Origin: a virus
Taxonomy: Duplodnaviria > Heunggongvirae > Uroviricota > Caudoviricetes
Strand: one strand, 5' to 3'
IMG/VR virus record: IMGVR_UViG_2541047850_000005
Coordinates: 1 to 64,000 of that record
Length of the DNA stretch: 64,000 bases
The notes beneath the pieces are model-generated. The model searched no databases and had not been told where the DNA came from. It saw nothing but the letters and a program-made list of their open reading frames with translations. Positions 772 to 64,000 of this stretch are shown piece by piece (within the stretch, counting starts at the first letter, position 1; each line of letters starts with the position of its first letter). The position numbers and the translations under genes were made by a program.

Positions 772-1080
772 GTGACTCACATGACAAAAACAGTATCAAC
801 CAGTAAAAAACCCCGTAAACAGCATTCGCCTGAATTTCGCAGTGAAGCCCTGAAGCTTGCTGAACGCATCGGTGTTACTGCCGCAGCCCGTGAACTCAGC
901 CTGTATGAATCACTGCTCTACAACTGGCGCAGTAAACAGCAAAATCAGCAGACGTCTTCTGAACGTGAACTGGAGATGTCTACCGAGATTGCACGTCTCA
1001 AACGCCAGCTGGCAGAACGGGATGAAGAGCTGGCTATCCTCCAAAAGGCCGCGACATACTTCGCGAAGCGCCTGAAATGA
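772..1080 (+). CDS. insE: IS3 transposase OrfA (HTH DNA-binding subunit)
   Basis: 102-aa ORF, sequence matches remembered IS3 OrfA (..[34 protein letters not shown]..); leucine-zipper-like C-terminus. Confidence 0.9.
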
Positions 1081-1943
1081 AGTATGTCTTTATTGAAAAA
1101 CATCAGGCTGAGTTCAGCATCAAAGCAATGTGCCGCGTGCTCCGGGTGGCCCGCAGCGGCTGGTATACGTGGTGTCAGCGGCGGACAAGGATAAGCACGC
1201 GTCAGCAGTTCCGCCAACACTGCGACAGCGTTGTCCTCGCGGCTTTTACCCGGTCAAAACAGCGTTACGGTGCCCCACGCCTGACGGATGAACTGCGTGC
1301 TCAGGGTTACCCCTTTAACGTAAAAACCGTGGCGGCAAGCCTGCGCCGTCAGGGACTGAGGGCAAAGGCCTCCCGGAAGTTCAGCCCGGTCAGCTACCGC
1401 GCACACGGCCTGCCTGTGTCAGAAAATCTGTTGGAGCAGGATTTTTACGCCAGTGGCCCGAACCAGAAGTGGGCAGGAGACATCACGTACTTACATACAG
1501 ATGAAGGCTGGCTGTATCTGGCAGTGGTCATTGACCTGTGGTCACGTGCCGTTATTGGCTGGTCAATGTCGCCACGCATGACGGCGCAACTGGCCTGCGA
1601 TGCCCTACAGATGGCGCTGTGGCGGCGTAAGAGGCCCCGGAACGTTATCGTTCACACTGACCGTGGAGGCCAGTACTGTTCAGCAGATTATCAGGCGCAA
1701 CTGAAGCGGCATAATCTGCGTGGAAGTATGAGCGCAAAAGGTTGCTGCTACGATAATGCCTGCGTGGAAAGCTTCTTTCATTCGCTGAAAGTGGAATGTA
1801 TCCATGGAGAACACTTTATCAGCCGGGAAATAATGCGGGCAACGGTGTTTAATTATATCGAATGTGATTACAATCGGTGGCGGCGGCACAGTTGGTGTGG
1901 CGGCCTCAGTCCGGAACAATTTGAAAACCAGAACCTCGCTTAG
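1077..1943 (+). CDS. insF: IS3 transposase OrfB (DDE catalytic subunit)
   Basis: 288-aa ORF overlapping orfA stop (ATGA); DDE integrase-core motifs (..WAGDITYL.., ..HTDRGGQY.., ..DNACVESFF..). Confidence 0.9.
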
Positions 1944-2258
1944 ACCTGTGTCCATATTACGTGGGTAGGATCAATTTTCACCTAACTGAATAGCTCGCAT
2001 ATTCGTGAACCGACCAGCATCAGGATCTAGCAGTGTAGAGCGAATATCCTTTTCAACTAGATCTATGGCTCGCTCTTCATCAGAATCACAACCTGTTAAT
2101 AGTAAAGCCGCTATTAACAATGCTAATGAGTATTTTTTATTCACCCCATTCTTCATGAAACTTATTCCATAATCAATTTTTGGTGGAATGTACGGTTAGT
2201 CTGTCTACGCATCATAGAGATGTATATAATGACCAAAAAAGACTTAAAAAGGTAGACT

Positions 2259-2777
2259 ATGGTTAAAGACATCACCTACGGCATACCGGCTGAAGTCTGG
2301 CCGCGAGACTACGAACATGCTGAGCGCACCTTGCTCTTCTGGCGGAGTGCAAAATTTCCTGTAAGAGTCACTCTCGAAGACGGCCAAGTGTTTTGCATGT
2401 ATGTCTACGGGCTATTGAGCGCAAGAAATAAGCTGAACCTCACACCAGATCCGCTTAGCAACACAAATCGTATAAGGCTCCCTCTTGAGCGCATTAGCAC
2501 AATTGAGTCGGGCATAGAAGAGGTTGACACTTCATTCACAGGTCGACTAACGCTAAACAATGAACAGATGGTTAATCAGCCATCACGTCGTGACTTTTTT
2601 AAGATATGTCGTCAGGCTTACCAAAACGGCAAATCTATAAGGGTCTACATGGCAGACGGTCGCGAAATTGAGGGAACGTCAGATGGCGTTGACGCCTGTC
2701 TAGTCACACTTAAGTTGGAAGACGGTAGAAAAATACTTATTTTCTTCGATTGGGTTGAACGAATCCTTCCGTTTTAA
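2259..2777 (+). CDS. hypothetical protein (172 aa, internally repeated)
   Basis: ORF with upstream AT-rich promoter-like region; no recognised domain. Confidence 0.5.
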   Translation: MVKDITYGIPAEVWPRDYEHAERTLLFWRSAKFPVRVTLEDGQVFCMYVYGLLSARNKLNLTPDPLSNTNRIRLPLERISTIESGIEEVDTSFTGRLTLNNEQMVNQPSRRDFFKICRQAYQNGKSIRVYMADGREIEGTSDGVDACLVTLKLEDGRKILIFFDWVERILPF

Positions 2778-3075
2778 TTTCTATAAGGGTAATAATCGGC
2801 TAAGTCCGGTTATTATTTTACATGCCATTCGTTTAACACTCATTCAATTCTCCCCCGTATAAATATATAAGGTCAAAAGCCGGAATTTATTATTTATTTA
2901 GGGAACACCTTCGACGATCTAACTTTTATTTCTAGGACTTTCATCCCTGCAAAAAAACTTAAAAAAAACACTTGCAATCTTTTTTCGCGTATCGATAATT
3001 GAACGCATCAGGAACGAGTGCAAAACACTTTCTTTCTTGAGTTAAATTTTAATATTTATACTAAGGAATAAAATC

Positions 3076-3726
3076 ATGACTAACATTATCATTTCTAAAA
3101 AATCCATCATTGAAGCTGCTTCCATTGTATCCGATGAACTGCGCGAAAAAGCAGATCTGGCAACTCAAACATATAACGACCATTATAAAAATGGTACGCA
3201 CACTAAAGCAGACAAAGCAAATATGCAAGCTGCGACCACTAAACTTGCTTACTTCATCAACAACGTCGTAAACGCAGTAGAAGACGAAAAATTATGCTCT
3301 GTTTTCTACTATGCGATTAAAGCAAGTAAACAAGCGCCAGAAGTATTTTTCCGTGATGCTATGACTAATAGTTATTCACTGGAAAAACTGGTTTATCTGG
3401 TTAAATCCATTAAAGCTGGTAAATGTGTTTATTCCGTCGCTGATATGTCTGGATCTCGTGTATTCGCTTTAATCGATATGATTAACGACGAGATCGACAC
3501 GTTCACCAATGGCGCTGTTTTCGATTTAATGAATGAAGCTAAAAAAGCGTGTGAAATTAAATTGGACGCTGGCTATACTCAAGCCAACCAGTTGATCAAT
3601 CTTTGCGAACGTCTTGGACTTGTTGAAAAAGTCAAAGGAGCTGGGATCGCAAAAGCTGGTACTCAGCAATATCGCTTCATTAAAAATGATTTCTACAATT
3701 ATTTAGCTGATGCTTTCAAAGCGTAA
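3076..3726 (+). CDS. hypothetical protein (216 aa)
   Basis: ORF preceded by GGAAT-type RBS (aaggaataaaatcATG); AT-rich; followed by hairpin. Confidence 0.55.
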   Translation: MTNIIISKKSIIEAASIVSDELREKADLATQTYNDHYKNGTHTKADKANMQAATTKLAYFINNVVNAVEDEKLCSVFYYAIKASKQAPEVFFRDAMTNSYSLEKLVYLVKSIKAGKCVYSVADMSGSRVFALIDMINDEIDTFTNGAVFDLMNEAKKACEIKLDAGYTQANQLINLCERLGLVEKVKGAGIAKAGTQQYRFIKNDFYNYLADAFKA

Positions 3727-3773
3727 TTAATGGAATCAAGCGCCCATAGTGGGCGCTTTAAAGGAGCTTTAAA

Positions 3774-3977
3774 ATGATCAGCTATGACAAGATCCGCGCG
3801 GAATATCGCGCAAAGTATCGCGCTTATAAACTGGAATTAATCGATGATTTGATCGCGCAACGCGACCAATTAAATTTTACGTTTTCTGATTTGCTTAACA
3901 GCAAGCAAGATTGCAAGCGCAAACGTGAATACTTACGTTTAAGCGCATTAATCGGAAAACTTCAAAATTCTATTTAA
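3774..3977 (+). CDS. hypothetical small protein (67 aa)
   Basis: ORF with RBS aaaggagc upstream. Confidence 0.4.
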   Translation: MISYDKIRAEYRAKYRAYKLELIDDLIAQRDQLNFTFSDLLNSKQDCKRKREYLRLSALIGKLQNSI

Positions 3978-3998
3978 TTTTTTTTAAGGAGCTTAATC

Positions 3999-4229
3999 AT
4001 GTTTGTTCTTATCGCTGGCGTTAACGTCCATAATGAATATTATGTTAATCGCATCGCTGGGATCGCTGGTTACGCTGGGCGCGCAGTCGAGCTTATAGAT
4101 GAAACGACGCGCAAAATTGACTTATTGAGCGACCAGGAGCGAAAAAAAGCAGACGTGAACGACGCTGATATATTTTTAATGTTAAAAGCGTTTGTAGAAA
4201 TGGGGTTTAAAATCAGTTTACACAAATAA
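3999..4229 (+). CDS. hypothetical small protein (76 aa)
   Basis: ORF with RBS ttaaggagc upstream; followed by strong terminator. Confidence 0.4.
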   Translation: MFVLIAGVNVHNEYYVNRIAGIAGYAGRAVELIDETTRKIDLLSDQERKKADVNDADIFLMLKAFVEMGFKISLHK

Positions 4230-4233
4230 AATC

Positions 4234-4258
4234 GAGCGCCCACTATGGGCGCTTTTTT
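4234..4258 (+). terminator. rho-independent terminator (GAGCGCCCA-cta-TGGGCGCTT + T6)
   Basis: 8-bp GC-rich stem followed by TTTTTT; a near-identical hairpin occurs at ~3739..3759 and a second hairpin+T-run at ~4282..4306. Confidence 0.6.
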
Positions 4259-4844
4259 CGTTTCCAATACACCTACCATAACGCGCCAATGATGGCGCGT
4301 TTTTATTGTCTTTAACTCACTCCAACAACATAAAAATAAGCGCCAAAATAACGCCATAGACGCGATTTTATATCCTTGCCAGTACACACCCATTACTTAA
4401 CACATTAACGCGCTTAAAACGCGTTATATTGCGCTATAGAGTATGGTTAATCATTGGCTTTTAGTCTTGCTTTATGATCCGCGTTTATTTGTCGGCGCGG
4501 ATCGGCATTTTGTTTTGTTCCGTATCCGCTCGCGTATTATGTGCGCGTGATTTTTCACATAATCACACCACTTAATCACGTATGTGATTACGCTACGAAA
4601 GAAATCTGGATGTCTCAGGCGACGAAAGTCATAATAATTTTCCCCGCTCACCTGTCCGACAACCGCTGGTTGGATTCCACCAGCTTCCCGATGTTTTTTC
4701 TACATAAAGGCGAATGCAGCCGTTTCCCGAAAAAATCCTGGCCGTTTCCCGTCGGCTAATGAATACGTTCCTCGCCGTTTCTGAAAATTTCCCTACGGCA
4801 GCTGATGGATATAGAGAAAGGGCCGTTTCTGGCCCTCTTCTCAG

Positions 4845-5327
4845 TTACACGCCATCAAGGATGTGGATGCGGTTGCTTGCGTATACATTCAGCATAAAGT
4901 TAGCGCAAAACAGTTTCCATGTATCAACGCCAGCGGTATACGTAATGTTTTTGCATTTAATTGCATTGTTGGCGATCCGCATCCCCTGCGATACTGCTTC
5001 ATCGTCGGAAAATTTGAACGACGATTGAGTTTTAATCCAGACAGAAATCTGCGTAGCGAACTCAATCAGCTTGGACTGGCAGAATCGCCCGGAGCGCACC
5101 GGAAAGACGAACGTTCCGAATCCAGAATTTACCACATACGCTTTCTCAAATACCCGCGAGTAACGACGATTGCCAATGATGTCGCGTGCAATAATGCATT
5201 TTTCTTGTGCTGACAGTTCTACCGTCTCATTGTCGCGCCATGCACCAAGTACTCGTTTTTCAATGTCAGAGAACGTTACAGCGATATTGCCATGTGCGGG
5301 TGCGTTTACAGTAGCGATAAAATTCAT
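4845..5327 (-). CDS. hypothetical protein (160 aa)
   Basis: ATG at 5325..5327 with AAGGAA RBS; conserved AACAAATTGTTTTC motif upstream. Confidence 0.5.
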   Translation of the reverse strand: MNFIATVNAPAHGNIAVTFSDIEKRVLGAWRDNETVELSAQEKCIIARDIIGNRRYSRVFEKAYVVNSGFGTFVFPVRSGRFCQSKLIEFATQISVWIKTQSSFKFSDDEAVSQGMRIANNAIKCKNITYTAGVDTWKLFCANFMLNVYASNRIHILDGV

Positions 5328-5677
5328 GATTAATTCCTTATCGTAAATAACAAATTGTTTTCTTGTTGGCGTTAATTATCGTTGTACGAATAAGGCATCA
5401 AAGTGGAAAGTTGCGGTAGCCGGACGGGAACAGGTGGGTTTGTCGGTTGCCTGGAGGTAAGAGGTTGGTGTTTTTAGCCTGCGGGAAACAGGATGGTCAT
5501 TTAAGGCCACCAGCAGTGGTGGCCTTAATAATTATCGACCGATTACGCTAAGGATCTTTTCCTCAACTGATTTGTTGTTGCGACTAAACTGCCTTGCGTA
5601 TCTGATGACAGAAGAGGCGTTTTGCTTTCTGACTATCTCGGCTCTTTCCTTCAGGCGTTTCTTGAAATCGCCCATAT

Positions 5678-6052
5678 TTACCACCAGGCGCAGAAGGTCA
5701 GTCTGTTATTGTGAAAGTCGTGGTTCTTAATCAGCTCTTCCACAAGTTTTTTCAACTCCCCCACGTCATGCCAGTACCCTTCATCGTACTCCTGACTGCC
5801 GAAGAAAAAACCTTCACAGGTAGGTAAGTACTCTTCGCAGTTACTTTCGTTCATGTGCATCAAATGAGCTTTCAGAGCACAAATGTCATTCATCGTTAAT
5901 TCTAAAAGCTCACAATTTTTGACTTCACCTACGTTGCGTTCCATCCACCCAAAGAGAGCATTGAACTTACGGAAGTAAGCAACCTTCTTTCTGGATGCAT
6001 CGTTATTCAGATCGTTTTTTGGTTGCGTCTCAATGTAGATATCAAGTCCCAT
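5678..6052 (-). CDS. hypothetical protein (124 aa, Cys/His-containing)
   Basis: ATG start with AAGGAAACC RBS and upstream palindromic motif. Confidence 0.5.
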   Translation of the reverse strand: MGLDIYIETQPKNDLNNDASRKKVAYFRKFNALFGWMERNVGEVKNCELLELTMNDICALKAHLMHMNESNCEEYLPTCEGFFFGSQEYDEGYWHDVGELKKLVEELIKNHDFHNNRLTFCAWW

Positions 6053-6170
6053 GATGGTTTCCTTATCAAGTTGCTTTCAGTGAAAGCATTTTCACAAATC
6101 AGATAAGGCAGAAAACAAATTGTTATCGGGCATAAGAAAATGGCGCGGTTTACGCGCCATTCAAAGAGGA

Positions 6171-6566
6171 TTAAGCGAATACGCTTTCAGGGATTAAGGT
6201 GTCAGCAGGAATGCCGGAGGTAATGCGCAGACCATACTGACCAATCCAGGTAGTGTTAGTGTTCAGACTGGAAGCGAATACGGTGTTAACCATATTCATC
6301 ATGGTTTCAAACACCTCTTTATTCACCTTACGGAAGTAACTTTCAATTTTCAACAACAACGGGTCCGTTGCATCAAAAATGGACTGATATTGCGCCTCAT
6401 ATTCCCCGCCTGATGTATCTCCTTTACGCACAATAGTACTTGCCTGAACTTCAGTTCCAGTTTCGGTGTTGTACGTAACGACGGTGATTTTAGCTACATT
6501 CTTACCTTCGGCGCTTTCTGAAGCATAGTAGACATCAACTGTCAGGTTTTCTCGTTTAACGCTCAT
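6171..6566 (-). CDS. hypothetical protein (131 aa; start moved to internal ATG with GGAGAG RBS)
   Basis: ORF track 6171..6578; ATG at 6566 has a better Shine-Dalgarno. Confidence 0.5.
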   Translation of the reverse strand: MSVKRENLTVDVYYASESAEGKNVAKITVVTYNTETGTEVQASTIVRKGDTSGGEYEAQYQSIFDATDPLLLKIESYFRKVNKEVFETMMNMVNTVFASSLNTNTTWIGQYGLRITSGIPADTLIPESVFA

Positions 6567-6692
6567 ATCACTCTCCATAGTGTCTTGGTTATTTTTCTAT
6601 TTTATAGACATAGGTATGTACTTACAATACAAAAAAAACCCGTAAGGATGGCGGGGCTGTCGTACTGTCGACTAATTACCACTTGCACATTA

Positions 6693-7004
6693 TCAGGCTA
6701 TTGCCATCACTGATGCTCTCTGAATCTCTTGCTGGGCCACGCGGTTAACTTCCATCAAAGCCAGTTCGAGCTGATGTTCCGGCCACATTCTTTGAAATGC
6801 CATCCAGCCTTTTCCACGCTGGCGACGAACATTCATTACATAACGAGTAAAGGTGTTTTTATCGAAAGACACCGCTGTTTCACGGAACAGACGAATAGAG
6901 GTTCCATTGGCAACGATGTCCAGCAAAGTTAATTGAGCAACCAGCGCAGGCTTCTCTTTTCTCTTCTGGTCTTTGTCCAGACCAAGAACCAATGATTTTT
7001 TCAT
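6693..7004 (-). CDS. hypothetical protein (103 aa; ATG start MKKSLVLG)
   Basis: track ORF begins at a TTG; in-frame ATG at 7004 has GGAG RBS and the conserved motif just upstream. Confidence 0.5.
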   Translation of the reverse strand: MKKSLVLGLDKDQKRKEKPALVAQLTLLDIVANGTSIRLFRETAVSFDKNTFTRYVMNVRRQRGKGWMAFQRMWPEHQLELALMEVNRVAQQEIQRASVMAIA

Positions 7005-9414: not shown

Positions 9415-9714
9415 TTACCAGTTCCAGCACTCAAGCCCTTCAACGACCGGCGCACCACAATCAAAATGTACAGAGTCAAAGCCTACATCAAGTACTTTCT
9501 GAATGTTAGCAATCGCGCCTTCGGATATACCATATCGACGCAAGTCGTCTTTCCAGACATCATCCTGTAACCCGGCGTGGACAATACAACCGCCATCAAT
9601 TTGTGAAACCCAATCCAGCTCATTGCTTGCGATCATGAATCGGCGAGCATCTTCCTCTGATGTATGAGATGAACTGATCAATGCCACCTGGTAGGCTTGG
9701 GTAATGTTCAACAT
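9415..9714 (-). CDS. hypothetical protein (99 aa; start MLNITQ)
   Basis: in-frame ATG with GGAG RBS; two copies of conserved motif upstream (9727..9790). Confidence 0.5.
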   Translation of the reverse strand: MLNITQAYQVALISSSHTSEEDARRFMIASNELDWVSQIDGGCIVHAGLQDDVWKDDLRRYGISEGAIANIQKVLDVGFDSVHFDCGAPVVEGLECWNW

Positions 9715-9823
9715 TTCAACCACTCCAAAACAAGTTGTTTTCTTATGTGGCTTATTATCTCTAACAACAAAAGGCAGAAAACAAATTGTTTTAGGTACTG
9801 TGTAAATCAGAAGGGATTGTGTC

Positions 9824-13204: not shown

Positions 13205-13594
13205 CTACATCACAGGACAATCATCAAACTCGCCACTTCTTGCGTCGTTGATAATGTGAGTGATCACACCAAACACGGCATTGCTGCCCGTGCATCCATC
13301 ATCATCCTTTGGCAATGCTTCCTTCTTACCAGTTCTTAAATCCTCCAGATGCTGACGTGGATACTTCCGGTATCTTTTTACGCGATATTCCCCATCCAGA
13401 GCACATACAAGAAGAGATCCATCAACAGGAGTGAGTGAGGAATCGACCACCAGCAATGCACCCTGCAATATTCCCTCACGATGATGGCTATCAGCTGCCC
13501 TCAAGAAGTAGGTCGCTGAAGGATGTCTAATTATCTGCTGATCAAGAGAAATACGGCTCTCAGCATAATCCGCCGCAGGAGAGGGGTACCCCAT
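13205..13594 (-). CDS. umuD: UmuD-like S24 peptidase (translesion-synthesis accessory, HumD/UmuD' type)
   Basis: 129 aa; alignment-by-eye to UmuD (..HPSATYF..A.DS....GI..G.LL.VD.....G.......DGE..VK..); Ser and Lys of the S24 dyad present; LexA box upstream; no umuC adjacent. Confidence 0.75.
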   Translation of the reverse strand: MGYPSPAADYAESRISLDQQIIRHPSATYFLRAADSHHREGILQGALLVVDSSLTPVDGSLLVCALDGEYRVKRYRKYPRQHLEDLRTGKKEALPKDDDGCTGSNAVFGVITHIINDARSGEFDDCPVM

Positions 13595-13612: not shown

Positions 13613-13632
13613 TACTGTTTATCTGTACAGTA
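13613..13632 (-). promoter_or_regulatory. LexA (SOS) box TACTGTTTATCTGTACAGTA upstream of umuD-like gene
   Basis: perfect CTGT-N8-ACAG core ~20 bp upstream of the ATG at 13594. Confidence 0.7.
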
Positions 13633-55200: not shown

Positions 55201-55765
55201 GGTCGTAGAATGGGGTAGGGTGCGGATAAACCACGCTATAGAAGTTGTCTTTTCCACCCGCTGTAATCAGTGTGCTTATGATTTTTGCAAAATCGTTGCG
55301 TTGGAACACGCTACCGATGTCGGAAGTGAGCAGGATGATGTTGCCTTTGGCATATGTAGAAACCAACTGTTCGAGCGAGAGACGCGGTACAAAGTAGAAC
55401 TGTTCTCGTGTGTTGGCCACCGTCATTAGTTCGCAGATGTCGCGATATCCTTGCTCATTTTTAATTAGAGCGGTAAACGAGTAGTTACGTCCCCGCTCTA
55501 ATGATTCCATACATCTCATAGATTCTTTAGCAAGTTTAGCACGGTGCTCGTATGTGGGATCATCAACAATGTTTAGTTTCACACCACAAATAACCGCCAT
55601 GTCGTCACCAGCGGCACGTTGTAGTGGAATAACGCTCGCAATATTCATGCTATCTGCTGAAATTACAGCGGTGTAGCCAGCTTCTCTGGCAATCTTCACC
55701 GCGTTTTCTGCTTTTAAAGCCGACTCCCCAAGTGAGAAGTCAGTTCGAACCATCAGTGCCTTCAT
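52247..55765 (-). CDS. dnaE: DNA polymerase III alpha-like (DnaE-type, C-family) replicative polymerase
   Basis: 1172 aa; N-terminal PHP-domain-like region, large multi-domain architecture typical of DnaE; the island encodes its own DnaQ-like exonuclease. Confidence 0.85.
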   Translation of the reverse strand: MKALMVRTDFSLGESALKAENAVKIAREAGYTAVISADSMNIASVIPLQRAAGDDMAVICGVKLNIVDDPTYEHRAKLAKESMRCMESLERGRNYSFTALIKNEQGYRDICELMTVANTREQFYFVPRLSLEQLVSTYAKGNIILLTSDIGSVFQRNDFAKIISTLITAGGKDNFYSVVYPHPTPFYDQINVRAMKVASALKIEPVAFYPAYYESIDDADIKDIAHMVTNNIKIDQPHRLRIPHQRDNAVNGRRHLLESLKAFSVRMDVPVTAAMASTTQDTIIDACTWRWHELPPALPKMADDEPATLMKLAVAGLRKRLTTKEFGYTPPASENRVYVERLKYEMDTLTRLGFCGYFLMVRDLMNHSRETGIPVGPGRGSSAGSLVAWCIGITNVDPIRHGLLFERFINPERLDLPDADLDFSQARRHEVIEYLNERYGEDYVAGIPNFTYLGAASALRDTARIYGVDAADMAVSKELKNVEDDSLPLEELREQLASLDKYATKYPDAFNAACKLQSIMRGFGRHAAGMIVAGVPLTERTPVERRGDARCIAFDKRYCEAMGLIKLDVLGLATLDLLDSAKRYIKENTGEDINLDAISLEDRKVLDGFAAGYTQGVFQLESGPMRKLLKDLGGGIEPMSFKTVVATTALFRPGPIQSGMLDDYVSVAKGFMTPESLHPVLDELTAETNGVILYQEQTMNATRLLAGFTMAEADGVRSAIGKKNMEKMKSMGEKFIVQAQAGWIDVELEDGTTQRIHRAEHFKCEDGTLKTVEEALEHGAKLPINAVRVTASHPGLSEMKAKEIWTAFEKNGAYQFNKSHSVAYSLISYQSMWLKTHYPAEFFAAALTILGEDKHQGLVKDALTYGIRVLPPDVNVSSNRIEIRTLEDGSQVLYAPFSAVKGCSENGCQAIMRAREKVGGKFESLAQFEEAVEKRACNSRVRESLRKVGAFASIEPGSLPATDPERLRDQAELMGNLVIDAVKASRPFEMNPKRSAEINVLMTRMAAEMGLGDELIRPSIGIKPKIMIILDNANGNDARTGYFMENGYDDFKAKLLTAGDLRMGDLYVTGVCKKVKDKEKDYTKDEIGQFTDFIREEINLVRPTYVLTCGSRATALFNNKNKPSDLVGRKEYLPDLDVTVFYGFNPNILYFRPEEGERLEAILADVAETIKS

Positions 55766-59385: not shown

Positions 59386-59943
59386 GGCTAATCCTTTGTT
59401 ATGAAAACAAATTATTTACTAGTATGTTTAATGTAGCACTGCGCGAACAGGGAACTAAGCCATTCGCGCAGGTAGCAGAGGGGTTAACAGGTTCTGACGG
59501 CTAAAGAGCCAGAGCCGGTATTGATAAGCGTGAAGCGTTTGTTATTAAGTAGGAATATAAAGGCTGTTGCGTCATGCATACCAACCTGAATCTGCTCATT
59601 TGGTAATTCGGTGAGAATGTCAGCTACACATTCATCAGCTAATTTTTCAACGTGTCCGATCTCAAGAGTGATTAGGCTGGAAATAGTTGTTTTCATTCAA
59701 TCAATCCATTCTAACTTAAAATATGGTAGGGAGTACTATTAAATCTTATATCATAATTGAACTTATCTATATCATATCTGAGTTAGTTTTGTTACATGTT
59801 ATTAGTCGTTTTTCTCCATTAATGAATGCTGATTGGTTAATATTTGTGCCTGTAGAAAAAATGATTATATCTTTACAACCCTAACCTTTGATGTAATATC
59901 GGTAAGCACTTACCAGAGAGTTTAACGCGCAAAGGTCGCAATA

Positions 59944-60330
59944 ATGTCTGACAAAAACATTGAATTTATAGAAAGTCGCTATGCTGCTTTTATCGCAGGG
60001 CTGATTGAATCCTCACCTATGAGTCAGGCCCAAATAGCCAGACTTATTGGTTATAAAAATGCCAACAACCTTTCTTTAATTAAAAGTGGTAAAATTCCTT
60101 TGCCTATCGATAAGGTTCGTCCGCTGGCGTTGGCGCTGGGTATTGAGCCAAGTCGTCTTATGATGATGGTGCTGGAAGAACGCCAACCTGAACTCGCAGC
60201 ATTTTTATACAAAGAAGGCACCGCTCCTCTTAACGAGGACGAAAAACAGGTTCTTGCTGCATATAACGAGCGATTCGGTAAAGAGAAAGGCGCATCACAA
60301 AAGGTTGTTGAGGCCATAAAGTCTCTATGA
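59944..60330 (+). CDS. HTH (XRE/Cro-CI-like) DNA-binding protein
   Basis: ..SQAQIARLIGYKNANNLSLIKSGK.. helix-turn-helix; convergent with and overlapping the integrase 3' end. Confidence 0.65.
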   Translation: MSDKNIEFIESRYAAFIAGLIESSPMSQAQIARLIGYKNANNLSLIKSGKIPLPIDKVRPLALALGIEPSRLMMMVLEERQPELAAFLYKEGTAPLNEDEKQVLAAYNERFGKEKGASQKVVEAIKSL

Positions 60331-61428
60331 AAAATTTAGACGAATAAGCTCTGTTGATAGACGATCTCCCTTGAATTTGTGGTCAATTTCGTCTAAATCC
60401 GGTTGCTCTACGATTGATGCGATGTACGTTGAGAAACTTTCTAAGGCGTCTCGCATCTCGTCCATATAATCGTGCCGGTCGTAGACCCGATCTATCCCCT
60501 CAAGACTGTGGTTCATGATTTTGCGTGATACCTCCTGGCTTATGCCTAATGCTGGGAAGTAACTACGCGCAGTACGACGCAAATCTCGGGGTGTAAATGG
60601 CGCAAGCTCCATCAGTTCTGGTCGTTCCAGAATACGACGTAATGCCTGGGCTATTGCCACTTTAGACATAGGAAGGTCTTTCCCGATTTTTTTATTCGAA
60701 GGCACGAGCCACTGGCTGTCTTTACCGTATTCGAACAACTCTTCAATGCATGTGCGCATTAATGTGCTTAAAGGCAGCGAATGCTCACGTGCTGACTTGT
60801 TTCTCTTGCCTTGATTCCAAACTCCACGCTTAAGATTGAACTCACTTTTTTTAGCCCTCAGTACTTCGTCAGGTCGTCTTGCTGATACAAGACACAGCCT
60901 GGCCGCCCATTTTGTACCAGCGCACACATTGAAGTAGTCCCATATATTCCAGAACACCCATACCTCTGCGTCGGTCAGCTTCCGCTCGCGAGGTGTGGGC
61001 TTTGCGCCACCGGCAACTTTGTTTAGTGACATATCGTTTAACGGTGACACGTCTATCATCCCCTGGAAGGCGCACCAGCTAAGGAACTGCTTCATCAGAG
61101 AGAAAACGCGGCGGCCCATAACAATTTTGCCATCCAGTATTAGTGGGTTGACCAGTTGGTTCACCATGAACCTATTAATGTCACTTACTTTTACATCGGC
61201 AATGTGCGGCAAAACATGTATCAAAATACAATGAACAGCGATCTCTGGCCGACGTCTGGTTATCAGCAGAGATAAGCGAGTGAATAACATGAATGCGTCC
61301 GAGAATTTCATATCATTGCTAACCTGCGAGATCATAACGGCCTGCATTTGAGATGCTCTTTCGAGATACTCAATCGCCTCTTTTGAGGTGTTCTCAGCAG
61401 CGCGTGCTCTGTCAAAGCTATTTTTCAT
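60325..61428 (-). CDS. int: tyrosine recombinase / phage-type integrase
   Basis: C-terminal catalytic region ..FTPRDLRRTARSYF..RKIMNHSLEGIDRVYDRHDYMDE.. (R..H-x-x-R..H/Y pattern of tyrosine recombinases). Confidence 0.8.
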   Translation of the reverse strand: MKNSFDRARAAENTSKEAIEYLERASQMQAVMISQVSNDMKFSDAFMLFTRLSLLITRRRPEIAVHCILIHVLPHIADVKVSDINRFMVNQLVNPLILDGKIVMGRRVFSLMKQFLSWCAFQGMIDVSPLNDMSLNKVAGGAKPTPRERKLTDAEVWVFWNIWDYFNVCAGTKWAARLCLVSARRPDEVLRAKKSEFNLKRGVWNQGKRNKSAREHSLPLSTLMRTCIEELFEYGKDSQWLVPSNKKIGKDLPMSKVAIAQALRRILERPELMELAPFTPRDLRRTARSYFPALGISQEVSRKIMNHSLEGIDRVYDRHDYMDEMRDALESFSTYIASIVEQPDLDEIDHKFKGDRLSTELIRLNFS

Positions 61429-61444
61429 ATGACAATCACCGAGT

Positions 61445-61464
61445 TACGCCGATTTACTGTATAA
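61445..61464 (-). promoter_or_regulatory. LexA (SOS) box TACTGTATAAGTAAACAGTA upstream of the integrase gene
   Basis: CTGT-N8-ACAG core, 17-36 bp upstream of the int ATG. Confidence 0.6.
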
Positions 61465-61522
61465 GTAAACAGTATATTAGGCATAGATTCTTATAGGATC
61501 AAGAGTAAAAGTAACTCATTTT

Positions 61523-61563
61523 CAGTAATGATTCCATACATAGTAGGTATGGAATCATTACTG
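61523..61563. repeat. perfect 16-bp inverted repeat CAGTAATGATTCCATA-N9-TATGGAATCATTACTG
   Basis: read directly; located ~100 bp outside the integrase start, candidate recombination or protein-binding site. Confidence 0.5.
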
Positions 61564-61892
61564 CATTTTCAGCCAATTCTGTAGCGCCTACGACTACGCT
61601 AACGAAGCGTTCGGGGTAACAGTTCCTCCCATCGTTAACTTGGTGAATATGTACTATTATCTACTAACTTAATAGGGCAATGTGATAAGGGGCATCAATT
61701 TGTATAGTCTGCATTCACTGCCCTTATAGCCAGGCGTGATAGTGGAAAAACGGTCAGGATCAAATCATCTTGGATGACAAAAAAACTATTGCAAAAAATA
61801 ATAACTAGTATTTTCCACTTTCTGAGTATGTGTGGGTTTTTAATAAATACTGTCTATATATTATACCAAAAAATATAAATATTTAGATAATA

Positions 61893-61960: not shown

Positions 61961-62743
61961 TTATTTTGAGATATATAAAGTTTTGTGTGGCTGTTTATTT
62001 TTCAGGTAAAATTGTTTAGGTGTCATATTGAAGTACCTCTTAAACACTGAGATAAAGTATGCTTCACTTGTATATCCTAAACACTTGGCGACAAAACCAA
62101 CTTTCCCAGTGTTGTGTTCTAATAGTTGTAACGCGTTTTTCATTTTAGTATCTAAAGTTAACTGTGTAAAAGTATAATTTTCCTCTTTTAGTCTTCTCCT
62201 CAATGAGGATTCTGAAGTATAAAGAGCGGAAGCCATTTCGCCTATACGCCATTGTTGAGTTAAGTTTTTTTCTAAGATGGATGATACTTTTTCTGAAATC
62301 AAAATTACTGGCATTGACTGCTTAAAGAAGTTTGTAAGTTCATAGGTGTCTATGCGGCTGAATAAAAATAACAGTATGCTAACGCGTCTAAAACCTGATT
62401 TTTCATTTTTAAGTTGTCTAAAGGCTAACTCTTCTTCCGTGTTCAGACTTGGTCCGATAATTAATGGTGGTTTGTTGTTGGTCGGGTGTATATTAACGCA
62501 GGAGAGAAATTTCACAATAATTCCAATATCCTCATCTTGAATAGTATAAATTTCGTCAGCAGAAACACGTCCGCTCAAACCAACAATTTTACTCTTTTTG
62601 CTAATAATGAAAAATGTATTTTTTAAAAGTTCTATCTCTTGATGCTCATTCAAATAAATTTTTATTGATTGATGTTTGACATAAACTAAGGTGTATTTAT
62701 TAAATATCATGTTTTTAAATGGCAACATGGTATTTTCCATCAC
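61961..62743 (-). CDS. AraC/XylS-family transcriptional regulator
   Basis: C-terminal double HTH signature (..IGEMASALYTSESSLRRRLKEE.. and ..VGFVAKCLGYTSEAYFISVFKRYFNMTPKQF..). Confidence 0.8.
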   Translation of the reverse strand: MMENTMLPFKNMIFNKYTLVYVKHQSIKIYLNEHQEIELLKNTFFIISKKSKIVGLSGRVSADEIYTIQDEDIGIIVKFLSCVNIHPTNNKPPLIIGPSLNTEEELAFRQLKNEKSGFRRVSILLFLFSRIDTYELTNFFKQSMPVILISEKVSSILEKNLTQQWRIGEMASALYTSESSLRRRLKEENYTFTQLTLDTKMKNALQLLEHNTGKVGFVAKCLGYTSEAYFISVFKRYFNMTPKQFYLKNKQPHKTLYISK

Positions 62744-62799: not shown

Positions 62800-64000
62800 C
62801 TATTCGCAAACTAGGGAGAGTCGACTTATCTTGCTTTGGTTTGCTTTTAATTCAAATCGTGCGGAGCATTGGCTTTCTTTATTGTCTCCCCATTGGACAT
62901 GCATTTCACCTCTGTCAGGCATACCACTCATCCATACCTGCCCATCGTTCGAAACAATGCTTGTTACACTGATATCTCCGGCTTCTCCTTTTAACGAGGC
63001 AATAGCGCCAAAAGGAACGAAATTACCATTTTTTCTAATCAAAGTAATAAGTGCCTTATGTCCAGATACTACATTAAATTTGGCGTGAACTAACGCCCCA
63101 CGGGAAGGTACTACCGTTAAATCAGATTTAATTATTTCAGTTTCTTCATTAACCTTGTTTACGTCTAGAGATATTCCATTTTTTCTATAGGGTGAAAGGT
63201 AAGGAACCACAGCATATCCATTGAAATCTGTGCTAATACCAATACCTCTTTTTACTTTGATGTCTTCTACGCCATTAGTGTCGATCAATGCATTAGCTCC
63301 GTCAAGAGATAACGGCTGAGACAATACAATCCCTTTTTTGTGTACAACTACTCCACCGCTAATGCCAAATTGTAATTGTTTTGAGTTATGTTGATGTGAC
63401 ACTGTTGATTGTATCTCTCCCTTGGAGGATTTATATCTCAGCGTTGCATTACCTGAACTGGAGTCACGACTACCGCTATGATAACCTTCCATGAAACTAT
63501 AATATAATTGCTGGTCTATAAAATAACCACTCACACCTGCTTGTGTATTTGTGCTATTTCCTGAATTGTATACATTTGTTGTCAATGATGCATTACTATA
63601 GTTCGAAAAAGAACTAAAAGGTACTGAAACTGAAAGATAAACAGATTTATCTATATCTTCATATTGTGGTTGTTTATTATAGTTTAATGACAAGGATGTA
63701 AATACCTTTTTTACAGGAAACGAATACGATAGCCGAAATTGGCGACTATCTTTAGCATTTCTATAAGTAGTCCAGTCTGAGGATAAGGTCAATTGGTTAG
63801 TATTGCCAATACTTTGTTGCAACTGAGTGGTAATTCTATTTATTTTATTAAATTTGGAATTATTACCAATCTTCATCTGTTGATAATCATTAAAAGAATA
63901 GAAGTTCTGTGAATTATAAAGTTGCTCTGTCAAATTCAAATAAGTACCTGTAGACTCAAATCCTTTCGCAAACATTAGTCGAGTTACAGAACCATTTTCA
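62800..64000 (-). CDS. fimbrial usher protein, C-terminal portion (gene continues beyond window end)
   Basis: C-terminal usher signature ..VPFGAIASLKGEAGDISVTSIVSNDGQVWMSGMPDRGEMHVQWGDNKESQCSARFEL..; the track ORF is open to the window edge. Confidence 0.8.
   Translation of the reverse strand, partial: ENGSVTRLMFAKGFESTGTYLNLTEQLYNSQNFYSFNDYQQMKIGNNSKFNKINRITTQLQQSIGNTNQLTLSSDWTTYRNAKDSRQFRLSYSFPVKKVFTSLSLNYNKQPQYEDIDKSVYLSVSVPFSSFSNYSNASLTTNVYNSGNSTNTQAGVSGYFIDQQLYYSFMEGYHSGSRDSSSGNATLRYKSSKGEIQSTVSHQHNSKQLQFGISGGVVVHKKGIVLSQPLSLDGANALIDTNGVEDIKVKRGIGISTDFNGYAVVPYLSPYRKNGISLDVNKVNEETEIIKSDLTVVPSRGALVHAKFNVVSGHKALITLIRKNGNFVPFGAIASLKGEAGDISVTSIVSNDGQVWMSGMPDRGEMHVQWGDNKESQCSARFELKANQSKISRLSLVCE

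Follow-up and report, generated by a model that had tools for sequence, protein, structure and literature searches.

The window analysed here, a 64,000-nt stretch (positions 1 to 64,000) of the IMG/VR virus record IMGVR_UViG_2541047850_000005, encodes a tyrosine recombinase, int, with a LexA (SOS) operator at its promoter and a lox-like palindrome upstream. We read these parts, at a probability of about 0.6, as a LexA-gated, Cre/lox-like multimer-resolution module of a phage-plasmid. Over its full length the window is collinear with the circular 108-kb phage-plasmid PhiR41_1 at 99.7% identity, and is a stretch of an extrachromosomal phage-plasmid of the SSU5/pHCM2/pMT1 type; a literature search on PhiR41 did not turn up a paper that describes this phage. 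When 5,426 complete E. coli genomes are asked for matches to the int region, all 254 are carried by plasmids, with no match on a chromosome, and the recombinase is found in 933 PLSDB plasmids, 900 of which are non-mobilizable. A tRNA/tmRNA search of the window returns nothing, and there is no tRNA-linked att site or att junction. The first-pass annotation had taken the region for a mobile island or integrated prophage, a description that the collinearity, the plasmid-only matches and the missing att junction contradict.

The LexA operator and the predicted int promoter

The int gene is encoded on the minus strand at 60325..61428, and the palindromic operator TACTGTATAAGTAAACAGTA, to which no strand is assigned, lies upstream of it at 61455..61474, in position to act on the minus-strand int promoter. 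The same 20-mer had been quoted in the first-pass annotation, and it is found letter for letter at window positions 61455-61474. The placement given there needs correction, in that the box was put 17-36 bp upstream of the start codon when it measures 27-46 nt upstream of the ATG at 61428 (a gap of 26 nt), and the end coordinate 61464 splits in half a box that ends at 61474. The box is 3 mismatches from a LexA consensus of the TACTG(TA)5CAGTA type, with the CTG-N10-CAG pattern. Allowing up to 3 mismatches to TACTGTATATATATACAGTA, only two sites occur in the 64 kb, where shuffles expect 0.00, so the 20-mer is real and beyond chance.

Scoring with a LexA matrix, a check that had been proposed along with the box, was done by the Berg-von Hippel heterology index (HI), and gives the int box HI 3.2, inside the range of 1.1-9.3 spanned by the set of 28 known LexA sites of E. 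coli from which the matrix was made. As background, the next match in the window that is not LexA-like has HI 10.4, and 30 shuffles give 5.9 at best. By this measure the predicted operator is comparable to strong E. coli SOS operators. A second LexA operator, TACTGTTTATCTGTACAGTA at 13613..13632 (no strand assigned, HI 4.65), lies upstream of a humD-type gene at a distance of 18 nt; this gene, on the minus strand at 13205-13594, matches the NCBIfam HumD equivalog with 215 bits. Cyrano is a phage-plasmid 96-98% identical to the element in the window. Across its entire 108 kb just two LexA boxes are strong, that of int and that of humD, with no antirepressor-like gene among their owners. Rfam at gathering threshold has no match anywhere in the window, and no known sRNA or riboswitch is near the box. 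A divergent target on the plus strand was also considered and rejected, as there is no ORF of at least 40 aa, the sole -10-like hexamer is spaced 14 bp from any -35-like sequence, and downstream the lineages differ in their DNA.

A phylogenetic footprint gives the promoter, Pint, that the box would control. The putative -10 hexamer, TAATAT in the int sense (61474..61479, minus strand), is kept as TAATAT/TTAAAT in the alignment, and the putative -35 hexamer, TTGATC (61497..61502, minus strand), as TTGATC/TTGACC, together with the 17-bp spacer between them. The putative -10 and the LexA box share one base, the last of the hexamer and the first of the box, so the overlap of box and promoter that had been proposed holds for this predicted promoter. 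Transcription is predicted to start some 7 nt beyond 61474, within the box. A generic promoter scan with a 9-of-12 threshold leaves Pint unflagged, at 8/12 matching positions; we count such generic promoter and terminator scans as weak evidence only.

Conservation of the box is deep. It is at the same position in 78/80 loci from IMG/VR viral contigs, in 20 sequence variants, and at -44..-49 (or -34) in all the plasmid relatives examined that have int 58-100% identical, namely those of E. coli, Klebsiella, Y. pestis pMT1, S. Typhi pHCM2, Enterobacter, Citrobacter, Kluyvera and the pCAV group. The CTG/CAG ends are invariant across these relatives, with the center free to vary and the flanks diverging. 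Because the operator is high scoring, is positioned at -10/+1, and is kept down to 58% int identity, LexA very probably represses this tyrosine-recombinase promoter. The box is absent from the int homologues of megaplasmids and of Photorhabdus/Xenorhabdus, so SOS gating is not intrinsic to the job of the recombinase. A literature search joining SSU5, pHCM2 or pMT1 with LexA found no report of the int box.

The recombinase and its candidate site

Int is a 367-aa protein with core-binding and catalytic domains of the lambda/P4 type (Pfam PF00589/PF22022). The catalytic set R184/R185, K211, R281-x-x-R284, H307, and Y316 is invariant in 42 sequences, and the first His of the HxxR motif is replaced by Arg. 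The AF2 model has a pLDDT of 84.6 and an N-terminus that is all helical. The arm-binding domain PF13356 is absent from all members of the int family and is found only in distant relatives. A fold search with int scores best to lambda Int residues 75-356 with E = 4 × 10−7, and the same search has IntI4 at rank 26 and Cre/Tre first at rank 35 with E = 0.017. A sequence search of the PDB has no match, and no integron-integrase model in NCBIfam or Pfam matches. Int descends from P4/lambda-type integrases. Membership of the Cre family was rejected on the missing PDB sequence match and on the Cre folds ranking 35th and below, and identity as IntI on the missing family match, the low rank of IntI4 and the lack of attC cassettes; the cargo beside the site is made of ordinary operons with their own regulator and not an attI/attC cassette array.

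Upstream of int there is a candidate recombination site at 61523..61563 (no strand assigned), with its core at 61528-61558. The core, ATGATTCCATAC-ATAGTAG-GTATGGAATCAT, is 31 bp with 12-bp inverted arms and a 7-bp asymmetric spacer, and is 53 bp upstream of the LexA box. In the window, the palindrome arms reach 17 bp and are bracketed by a CATTTTCAG repeat. The palindrome is found upstream of int in 70/74 loci and in 79/80 of the IMG/VR loci, and in the 5,426 complete E. coli genomes there is one copy per plasmid and zero on chromosomes. In a clade with int at ~47% identity, both arms switch from ATGATTCCATAC to TGACTCCAGAC together, as a compensatory change. That clade has no LexA box and mostly no HTH gene, the neighbor described below, and the palindrome is kept there; since the arm changes co-vary in this setting, the site is tied to the recombinase. 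In the distant megaplasmid homologues the arms co-vary with the recombinase protein. The orientation of the spacer relative to int is divided 30 vs 17 among loci, and is flipped between the window and PhiR41_1, which is the neutrality of orientation to be expected of an autonomous lox-like site.

Other functions for the palindrome were tried and rejected. As a terminator it would have an AT-rich stem with no T-run abutting on either strand, and the T-run in other lineages sits about 10 nt off. As an operator for the HTH protein it would have no reason to be kept in the Pantoea/Rahnella megaplasmids, which have no HTH gene within 3 kb. As an N15-like protelomerase site it is at odds with the asymmetric spacer, the circular records and a protein of 367 aa. 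A repeat search comparing Pint with the HTH/70-aa intergenic region found no convincing arm-type sites or shared operators.

The complete catalytic set, the missing arm-binding domain, the single-copy two-arm site near the gene, the co-variation of site and protein and the plasmid-only distribution are among the reasons why we favor a resolution module. Int would be a simple-site tyrosine recombinase, Cre-like in manner, having the 31-bp palindrome, present once per replicon, as its cognate site. Two directly repeated sites would arise only in a plasmid multimer, and therefore the effect of int would be to turn multimers into monomers, which would keep the plasmid prophage heritable. Host LexA bound to the 20-bp operator would cover the last -10 base and the predicted transcription start, and keep the recombinase low in undamaged cells. 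On DNA damage, RecA* would bring about LexA self-cleavage, Pint would be derepressed, and the recombinase would go up, and the SOS response is when host RecA and the recombination genes of the element are expected to make the most multimers. No other LexA-controlled recombinase for multimer resolution is known to us, and none came up when the literature was searched, so the adaptive logic of the gating is a conjecture.

Expression in Cyrano and the neighboring genes

For Cyrano, whose sequence is OV696614, strand-specific reads are public under GSE154648. The public RNA-seq data, in which we take B1 and B6 to denote bacteria alone, with no macrophages, give log2 values for int of 6.06 (B6), 8.89 (MB1), and 10.29 (MB6). 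That is a rise of about 19-fold for MB6 vs B6 in a macrophage infection that has no lexA mutant control, and it parallels the rise of host umuD, dinI, and sulA and of the LexA-boxed humD homologue. The authors of the RNA-seq call the macrophage condition SOS-inducing; it is not a clean SOS test, as toxin-antitoxin and several other Cyrano genes rise equally.

A gene for a 128-aa HTH protein lies on the plus strand at 59944..60330; it converges with int, and the two genes share 6 nt at the 3' end of int. It is the gene annotated "putative repressor" in Cyrano, CYRAN_45, and its expression in Cyrano lysogeny is 10x above background. The idea that the system operates without a CI-type repressor does not stand in that form, given a putative-repressor gene expressed in lysogeny and converging with int; no S24 autocleavage domain is detectable in the product of this gene. 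The convergent int-HTH pair is kept in all the phage-plasmid relatives, and also occurs without the LexA box in plasmids of Photorhabdus, Xenorhabdus, and Morganella; in Photorhabdus the module adjoins a Rep3 replication initiator. Downstream of the HTH gene is a 70-aa ORF of unknown function (phrog_2627; 59484..59696, minus strand), the homologue of CYRAN_46, and the stretch from int to this ORF has no predicted intrinsic terminator. SSU5, a lytic phage isolated as a plaque former, has neither int nor the HTH gene nor the 70-aa gene, so lytic growth does not need the module.

Alternatives to a resolution module

The alternative that survives best is that LexA-gated Pint acts, also or mainly, as an SOS sensor for prophage induction, with a transcript running through int, antisense over the HTH gene, and onward to the 70-aa gene and the block of early replication genes, so that the lysis-lysogeny switch would be tipped without a cleavable repressor. 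Several of the above features suit it, namely the tail-to-tail overlap of int and the HTH gene with no predicted terminator ahead of the 70-aa ORF, the early genes downstream all being on the strand of int, and the plaque-forming SSU5 lacking all 3 genes. Ciprofloxacin induces Cyrano 39-fold though its only strong LexA boxes are those of int and humD, and an HTH+S24 repressor was not found among the regulator candidates with recognizable annotation. Of all Cyrano genes, moreover, the 70-aa gene shows the strongest induction in the macrophage condition described as SOS-inducing, and it tracks int over five conditions. Against this, the HTH mRNA goes up with int instead of down (6.6 to 9.9 log2), the same macrophage condition yields no Cyrano virions, and the transcript level drops about 30-fold from the 70-aa gene to cobT. 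The Photorhabdus, Xenorhabdus, and Morganella plasmids have the int-HTH-70aa module but no LexA box, once beside the Rep3 gene in an arrangement resembling plasmid maintenance, and pMT1, which is not known as an active phage, retains the box. We think a sensor role unlikely on this balance, and would extend it only tentatively to the supposition that, throughout the SSU5/pHCM2/pMT1 supergroup, one operator may set off both the induction of the prophage and the action of the recombinase on the lox-like site.

Less likely than the sensor variant, and in our view quite improbable, is that the palindrome is an integron-like capture site where the SOS-induced recombinase inserts circles with a compatible site. 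Capture would explain why lineage-specific cargo starts exactly at the distal arm, inter-lineage homology ending at the outer edge of that arm. It also draws on the chaperone-usher operons found there in two independent lineages (an AraC-type regulator and usher in the window, caf1 in pMT1), on the many different distal flanks across IMG/VR, and on the lengthened, repeat-bracketed arms of the window. However, each plasmid has a single site, and the cargo is not flanked by a second, hybrid one. In PhiR41_1 the far end of the cargo has a "mobile element protein", which points to acquisition through an IS or by homologous recombination. Purifying selection on a functional module beside a variable region would account for the sharp boundary just as well.

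We regard it as very improbable that the LexA-like sequence has no function and is there by coincidence or as a relic. A Buttiauxella relative does have a degraded box (HI 9.6), and LexA binding to the operator is a prediction, but the chance expectation is about 0, the position and CTG-N10-CAG are kept through 20 variants while flanks and center diverge, and int is co-induced with SOS genes.

Least credible is the original reading of a prophage or island integrase that SOS derepression would set to chromosomal excision: it has in its favor the lambda/P4 integrase lineage of int and a LexA box that is real, and is already contradicted by the distribution data (no chromosomal copy of gene or site among the complete E. 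coli genomes, the mostly non-mobilizable PLSDB plasmids, the collinear circular phage-plasmid), as well as by the absence of a tRNA/att junction, of an arm-binding domain, and of an excisionase annotated beside int, where the neighbors are the HTH regulator and cargo. What stands of the SOS control suggested for int is a very probable LexA repression of its promoter, by score, position and conservation and by the rise of int in step with host SOS genes; excision as the output does not.

Comparison with known systems

For the resolution module, the nearest functional likeness is Cre/loxP of P1, and also ResD/rfsF of F, where a tyrosine recombinase of a plasmid prophage has a single site nearby. 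The loxP site similarly has two ~13-bp inverted arms and a short asymmetric spacer and needs no arm sites, and multimer resolution is the role to be expected here also. The differences are that int has no sequence relationship to Cre, that the spacer is 7 bp and not 8, that recombination at the palindrome is a prediction, and that the int promoter carries a LexA operator. To our knowledge, such an operator has not been described for cre or resD.

By sequence (26-33% identity) and by core-binding/catalytic fold, int is closest to the lambda/P4-type integrases, from which it differs in having no PF13356, attB, integrated copies or excisionase.

The LexA-controlled integron integrases (Guerin et al. 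2009; Cambray et al. 2011, PMC3108266) resemble int in having a LexA box over the promoter of a tyrosine recombinase, coupling recombination to SOS, and in having variable cargo beside the site. Int has no IntI family match or attC cassettes, and its candidate site, of which each replicon has one copy, is a palindrome in double-stranded DNA.

Direct use of host LexA by a plasmid prophage is seen with P1 humD, N15 antC, and GIL01 (for N15 and GIL01 as phage-plasmids using LexA, see PMC11652158), and the element in the window shares with P1 a LexA-boxed humD orthologue. The LexA targets in P1, N15, and GIL01 are a translesion accessory factor, an antirepressor or lytic promoters, whereas here the target is a recombinase gene.

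Significance

A recombinase and site this compact, diversified naturally in both arms and spacer, could be tried as a pair for genome engineering. If capture were true, it could account for the chaperone-usher operons at the junction, including the F1 capsule locus of Y. pestis. We found no description of DNA-damage sensing by these phage-plasmids in the searchable literature. The family is very common in Enterobacterales, as the PLSDB count given above indicates, with pMT1 and pHCM2 included in it, and its members carry virulence and resistance cargo. The int operator, next to a putative repressor gene, offers a mutable handle on how induction is wired in these elements, and on whether their multimer resolution is deliberately coupled to SOS.

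The LexA box and the int promoter

The tyrosine recombinase gene int (60325-61428, minus strand) is preceded by the 20-mer TACTGTATAAGTAAACAGTA at 61455-61474, which the first-pass annotation had called a LexA box, and that observation stands. The distance given there, 17-36 bp from the start codon, has to be corrected to 27-46 nt upstream of the ATG, and the right-hand coordinate of that annotation bisects the box. Just two sites in the 64-kb window match the E. coli LexA consensus TACTGTATATATATACAGTA with 3 mismatches or fewer, against 0.00 in shuffles. Scoring with a LexA matrix, the check proposed at that stage, bears the call out: by the Berg-von Hippel heterology index (HI), from an approximate matrix of 28 published E. 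coli sites, the int box is at 3.2, within the 1.1-9.3 of those known sites, while the next unrelated match in the window is at 10.4 and the best in 30 shuffled windows at 5.9. That the box is a chance sequence is thus very unlikely. At 6875-6890, CTGTTTCACGGAACAG also fits CTGT-N8-ACAG, but with an HI above 13 it is unlikely to be one.

A second box, TACTGTTTATCTGTACAGTA (13613-13632; HI 4.65 by the approximate matrix), lies 18 nt upstream of a HumD-family UmuD'-like gene (13205-13594, minus strand; 129 aa; NCBIfam equivalog, 215 bits). The humD gene of P1 is LexA-regulated, and the window's gene parallels it.

The upstream DNA of int was compared among 13 annotated relatives, 61 GTDB loci, and 80 IMG/VR loci. 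All phage-plasmid relatives carry a LexA box, located at -44 to -49 relative to the start codon except in the pCAV group, where it is at -34 and the int protein is only 58-60% identical. A box with an index of 6.1 or less is kept in 78 of the 80 IMG/VR loci, where 20 sequence variants occur, all of them CTG-N10-CAG; the Buttiauxella-type box (one sequence) is degraded, with an index of 9.6. When 11 diverse members are aligned, CTG and CAG are invariant, the box centre varies, and a predicted promoter is kept, with -35 TTGA(T/C)C, a 17-bp spacer, and -10 TAATAT/TTAAAT. The first base of the box is the last base of the predicted -10, so the box covers the predicted start site, which for this putative promoter would be the classic geometry of LexA repression. 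A generic promoter scan does not flag it because just 8 of 12 consensus positions match.

The element carrying int

The int region shares 99.7% identity with Escherichia phage PhiR41_1, a circular 108-kb record with which the remainder of the window is also collinear; identity of the region to phage Cyrano and further SSU5-like phage-plasmids is 96-98%. The neighboring genes, for CobT/CobS-like proteins and a DnaE-like polymerase, are typical of this group, and the window has no tRNA gene and no Rfam family. The int protein is encoded by 933 PLSDB plasmids, 900 of them non-mobilizable and the majority about 105-115 kb, in Klebsiella, Escherichia, Enterobacter, Yersinia pestis (pMT1), Salmonella (pHCM2), Citrobacter, and others; homologs with 46-48% identity are on Pantoea and Rahnella megaplasmids. 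Since all 254 occurrences of the region in 5,426 complete E. coli genomes are on plasmids and none is chromosomal, the element is not an integrated island, and the initial proposal that SOS-induced int excises and mobilizes one is contradicted and can be set aside as highly improbable.

The recombinase and its candidate site

Int has 367 aa with Pfam Phage_integrase and Phage_int_M domains, and its catalytic residues (Arg, Lys, Arg-x-x-Arg, His, and Tyr) do not vary among 42 homologs. The nearest outgroups, at 26-33% identity, are P4-type integrases with the arm-binding domain PF13356, which is absent from every member of the int family. The AlphaFold model (pLDDT 84.6) has an all-helical N-terminus, then core-binding and catalytic domains, and is best matched by lambda integrase residues 75-356, with Cre and IntI4 far lower. 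Int is an integrase by descent, with an anatomy like that of simple-site recombinases, Cre for example.

At 53 bp beyond the LexA box there is a perfect palindrome (61523-61563) with the core ATGATTCCATAC-ATAGTAG-GTATGGAATCAT. This layout of 12-bp inverted arms and a 7-bp spacer precedes int in 70 of 74 loci, and the IMG/VR set has it in 79 of 80. A clade with 47% identity has matching compensatory changes in both arms (TGACTCCAGAC/GTCTGGAGTCA), and most of its members have neither a LexA box nor the helix-turn-helix (HTH) gene found next to int in the window (59944-60330, plus strand). Therefore the palindrome belongs to the recombinase, and a role as operator of the HTH protein is ruled out. 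It is single-copy per plasmid in 252 E. coli genomes, each copy being listed as two places, presumably since both strands match, and E. coli chromosomes in the 5,426 genomes have no match even at E = 10.

Relative to int, the commonest spacer among the 74 loci occurs either way round (TTAATAG, n = 30; CTATTAA, n = 17), and the window's spacer (61540-61546) is the reverse complement of that of PhiR41_1, both flanks being identical. Such neutrality, as read from these alignments, would be expected of an autonomous site without asymmetric accessory arms. The spacers are quasi-palindromic (xTAxTAx); template switching at a hairpin and antiparallel synapsis are possible mechanisms of flipping. An exact 12-mer copy of one arm (GTATGGAATCAT) at 55501-55512 (minus strand), within the DnaE-like gene, has a chance expectation of about 0.008 and may represent a pseudo half-site or be coincidental.

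Expression in Cyrano

The int box of Cyrano, TACTGTTTACTTATACAGTG (index 4.4), differs from the window's at the outermost base alone. Cyrano is present as a plasmid at about 5.5 copies per cell, and ciprofloxacin induces it 39-fold (PMC9928086). Tables S1 and S4 of that paper give strand-specific RNA-seq values for five conditions, of which we take B1 and B6, from their labels, as macrophage-free bacteria. From B6 to macrophages at 1 h and 6 h, the log2 values are 6.06, 8.89, and 10.29 for int; 9.09, 11.34, and 12.21 for the LexA-boxed humD homolog; 4.1, 8.2, and 8.9 for host umuD; 5.8, 9.1, and 10.2 for dinI; and 7.3, 8.4, and 9.9 for sulA. The median Cyrano gene shifts by just +0.9 from B6 to MB6. 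The authors regard the macrophage as an SOS-inducing environment (PMC9928086). The int pattern is consistent with LexA control, in a condition that is no clean SOS test; toxin-antitoxin genes and several others are likewise up.

Proposed SOS-gated resolution and its alternatives

The account with the best support is that LexA would occlude the int promoter in undamaged cells, and that SOS would derepress it and raise the level of a recombinase acting on the adjacent single-copy palindrome. The obvious role of such a pair in a plasmid prophage would be multimer resolution, as for Cre/loxP of P1. Recombinases of this kind are anticipated in work on phage-plasmids, where tyrosine recombinases are listed as persistent in the SSU5 supergroup (PMC7969092). 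SOS coupling would be sensible because RecA recombination and the element's own UvsX/UvsY/SbcCD/RuvC genes are expected to produce multimers during that same response. The module of int, the HTH gene, and, beyond it, the 70-aa gene is missing from the type phage SSU5, which is lytic, so lytic growth does not require it. The whole module is naturally deleted there: tRNA-Asn is followed directly by cobT (9526-9762 of the SSU5 locus), and phoH and the glutaredoxin gene are missing too. In Photorhabdus asymbiotica (774-6768 of its locus) an int-palindrome-HTH-76aa module with no LexA box is flanked by a pore-forming colicin-domain protein and a Rep3-family replication initiator. The SSU5 absence and the Rep3 neighbor fit a maintenance role.

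The most interesting alternative, though one we consider unlikely, is that the int promoter acts as the sensor through which SOS induces the element. The only two strong LexA boxes of the complete Cyrano genome are at int and humD, and S24 cleavage domains are absent from the annotated regulators tested. The int and HTH genes converge and overlap, and the HTH gene (CYRAN_45, a "putative repressor") is expressed in lysogeny. No terminator is predicted on the int strand ahead of the 70-aa gene (59484-59696, minus strand; phrog_2627, function unassigned), whose homolog CYRAN_46 is the most strongly induced of all Cyrano genes in macrophages (MB6-BLB +6.4 log2). However, HTH mRNA goes up, not down, no virions are made in the macrophage condition, transcripts fall about 30-fold ahead of cobT, directly downstream of the 70-aa gene, and Photorhabdus, Xenorhabdus, and Morganella have the int-HTH-70aa module free of a LexA box. 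Where the HTH gene and the 70-aa ORF diverge, their promoter region has two 14-bp direct repeats, TATATCATAATTGA (59747-59760) and TATATCATATCTGA (59768-59781), 21 bp apart, which are candidate operators of the HTH protein. A hairpin with a 9-bp stem (CTGCGCGAA...TTCGCGCAG, about 59441-59473) follows the 70-aa ORF.

Considerably less probable is SOS-gated capture of cargo at the palindrome. Lineage-specific DNA begins exactly at the arm distal to int, and it includes chaperone-usher operons, in the window an AraC-family regulator (61961-62743, minus strand) and a fimbrial usher (62800-63975, minus strand) and, at the equivalent junction of Y. pestis pMT1 (1-1740 of its locus), the caf1 F1-capsule locus. 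Against this, there is a single site per plasmid and a mobile-element gene at the far end of the cargo. The window's junction is common to just 1 of 252 E. coli phage-plasmids. In its lineage only, the palindrome has a 9-bp direct repeat, CATTTTCAG, on either side (61517-61525 and 61564-61572), and the arms are 17 bp vs 13 bp in Cyrano; these may be a scar left when the fimbrial cargo became joined to the palindrome.

Significance

For integron integrases, which are tyrosine recombinases, LexA control is established (PMC3108266), and PMC11652158 gives the N15 antirepressor and GIL01 as LexA-controlled cases in other phage-plasmids. Int, likewise a tyrosine recombinase with a LexA box, has no match to any integron-integrase model in Pfam or NCBIfam. 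While P1 humD, the N15 antirepressor, and GIL01 are other LexA targets, the target here would be a Cre-like simple-site recombinase of P4/lambda descent, and what appears new is such a target in a very widespread phage-plasmid supergroup. We found no earlier report of the int operator in the searchable literature, which is no proof of absence. A LexA-boxed recombinase in a phage-plasmid is unsurprising in principle; the box is genuine and conserved, and through it the SOS wiring of these phage-plasmids becomes directly testable.
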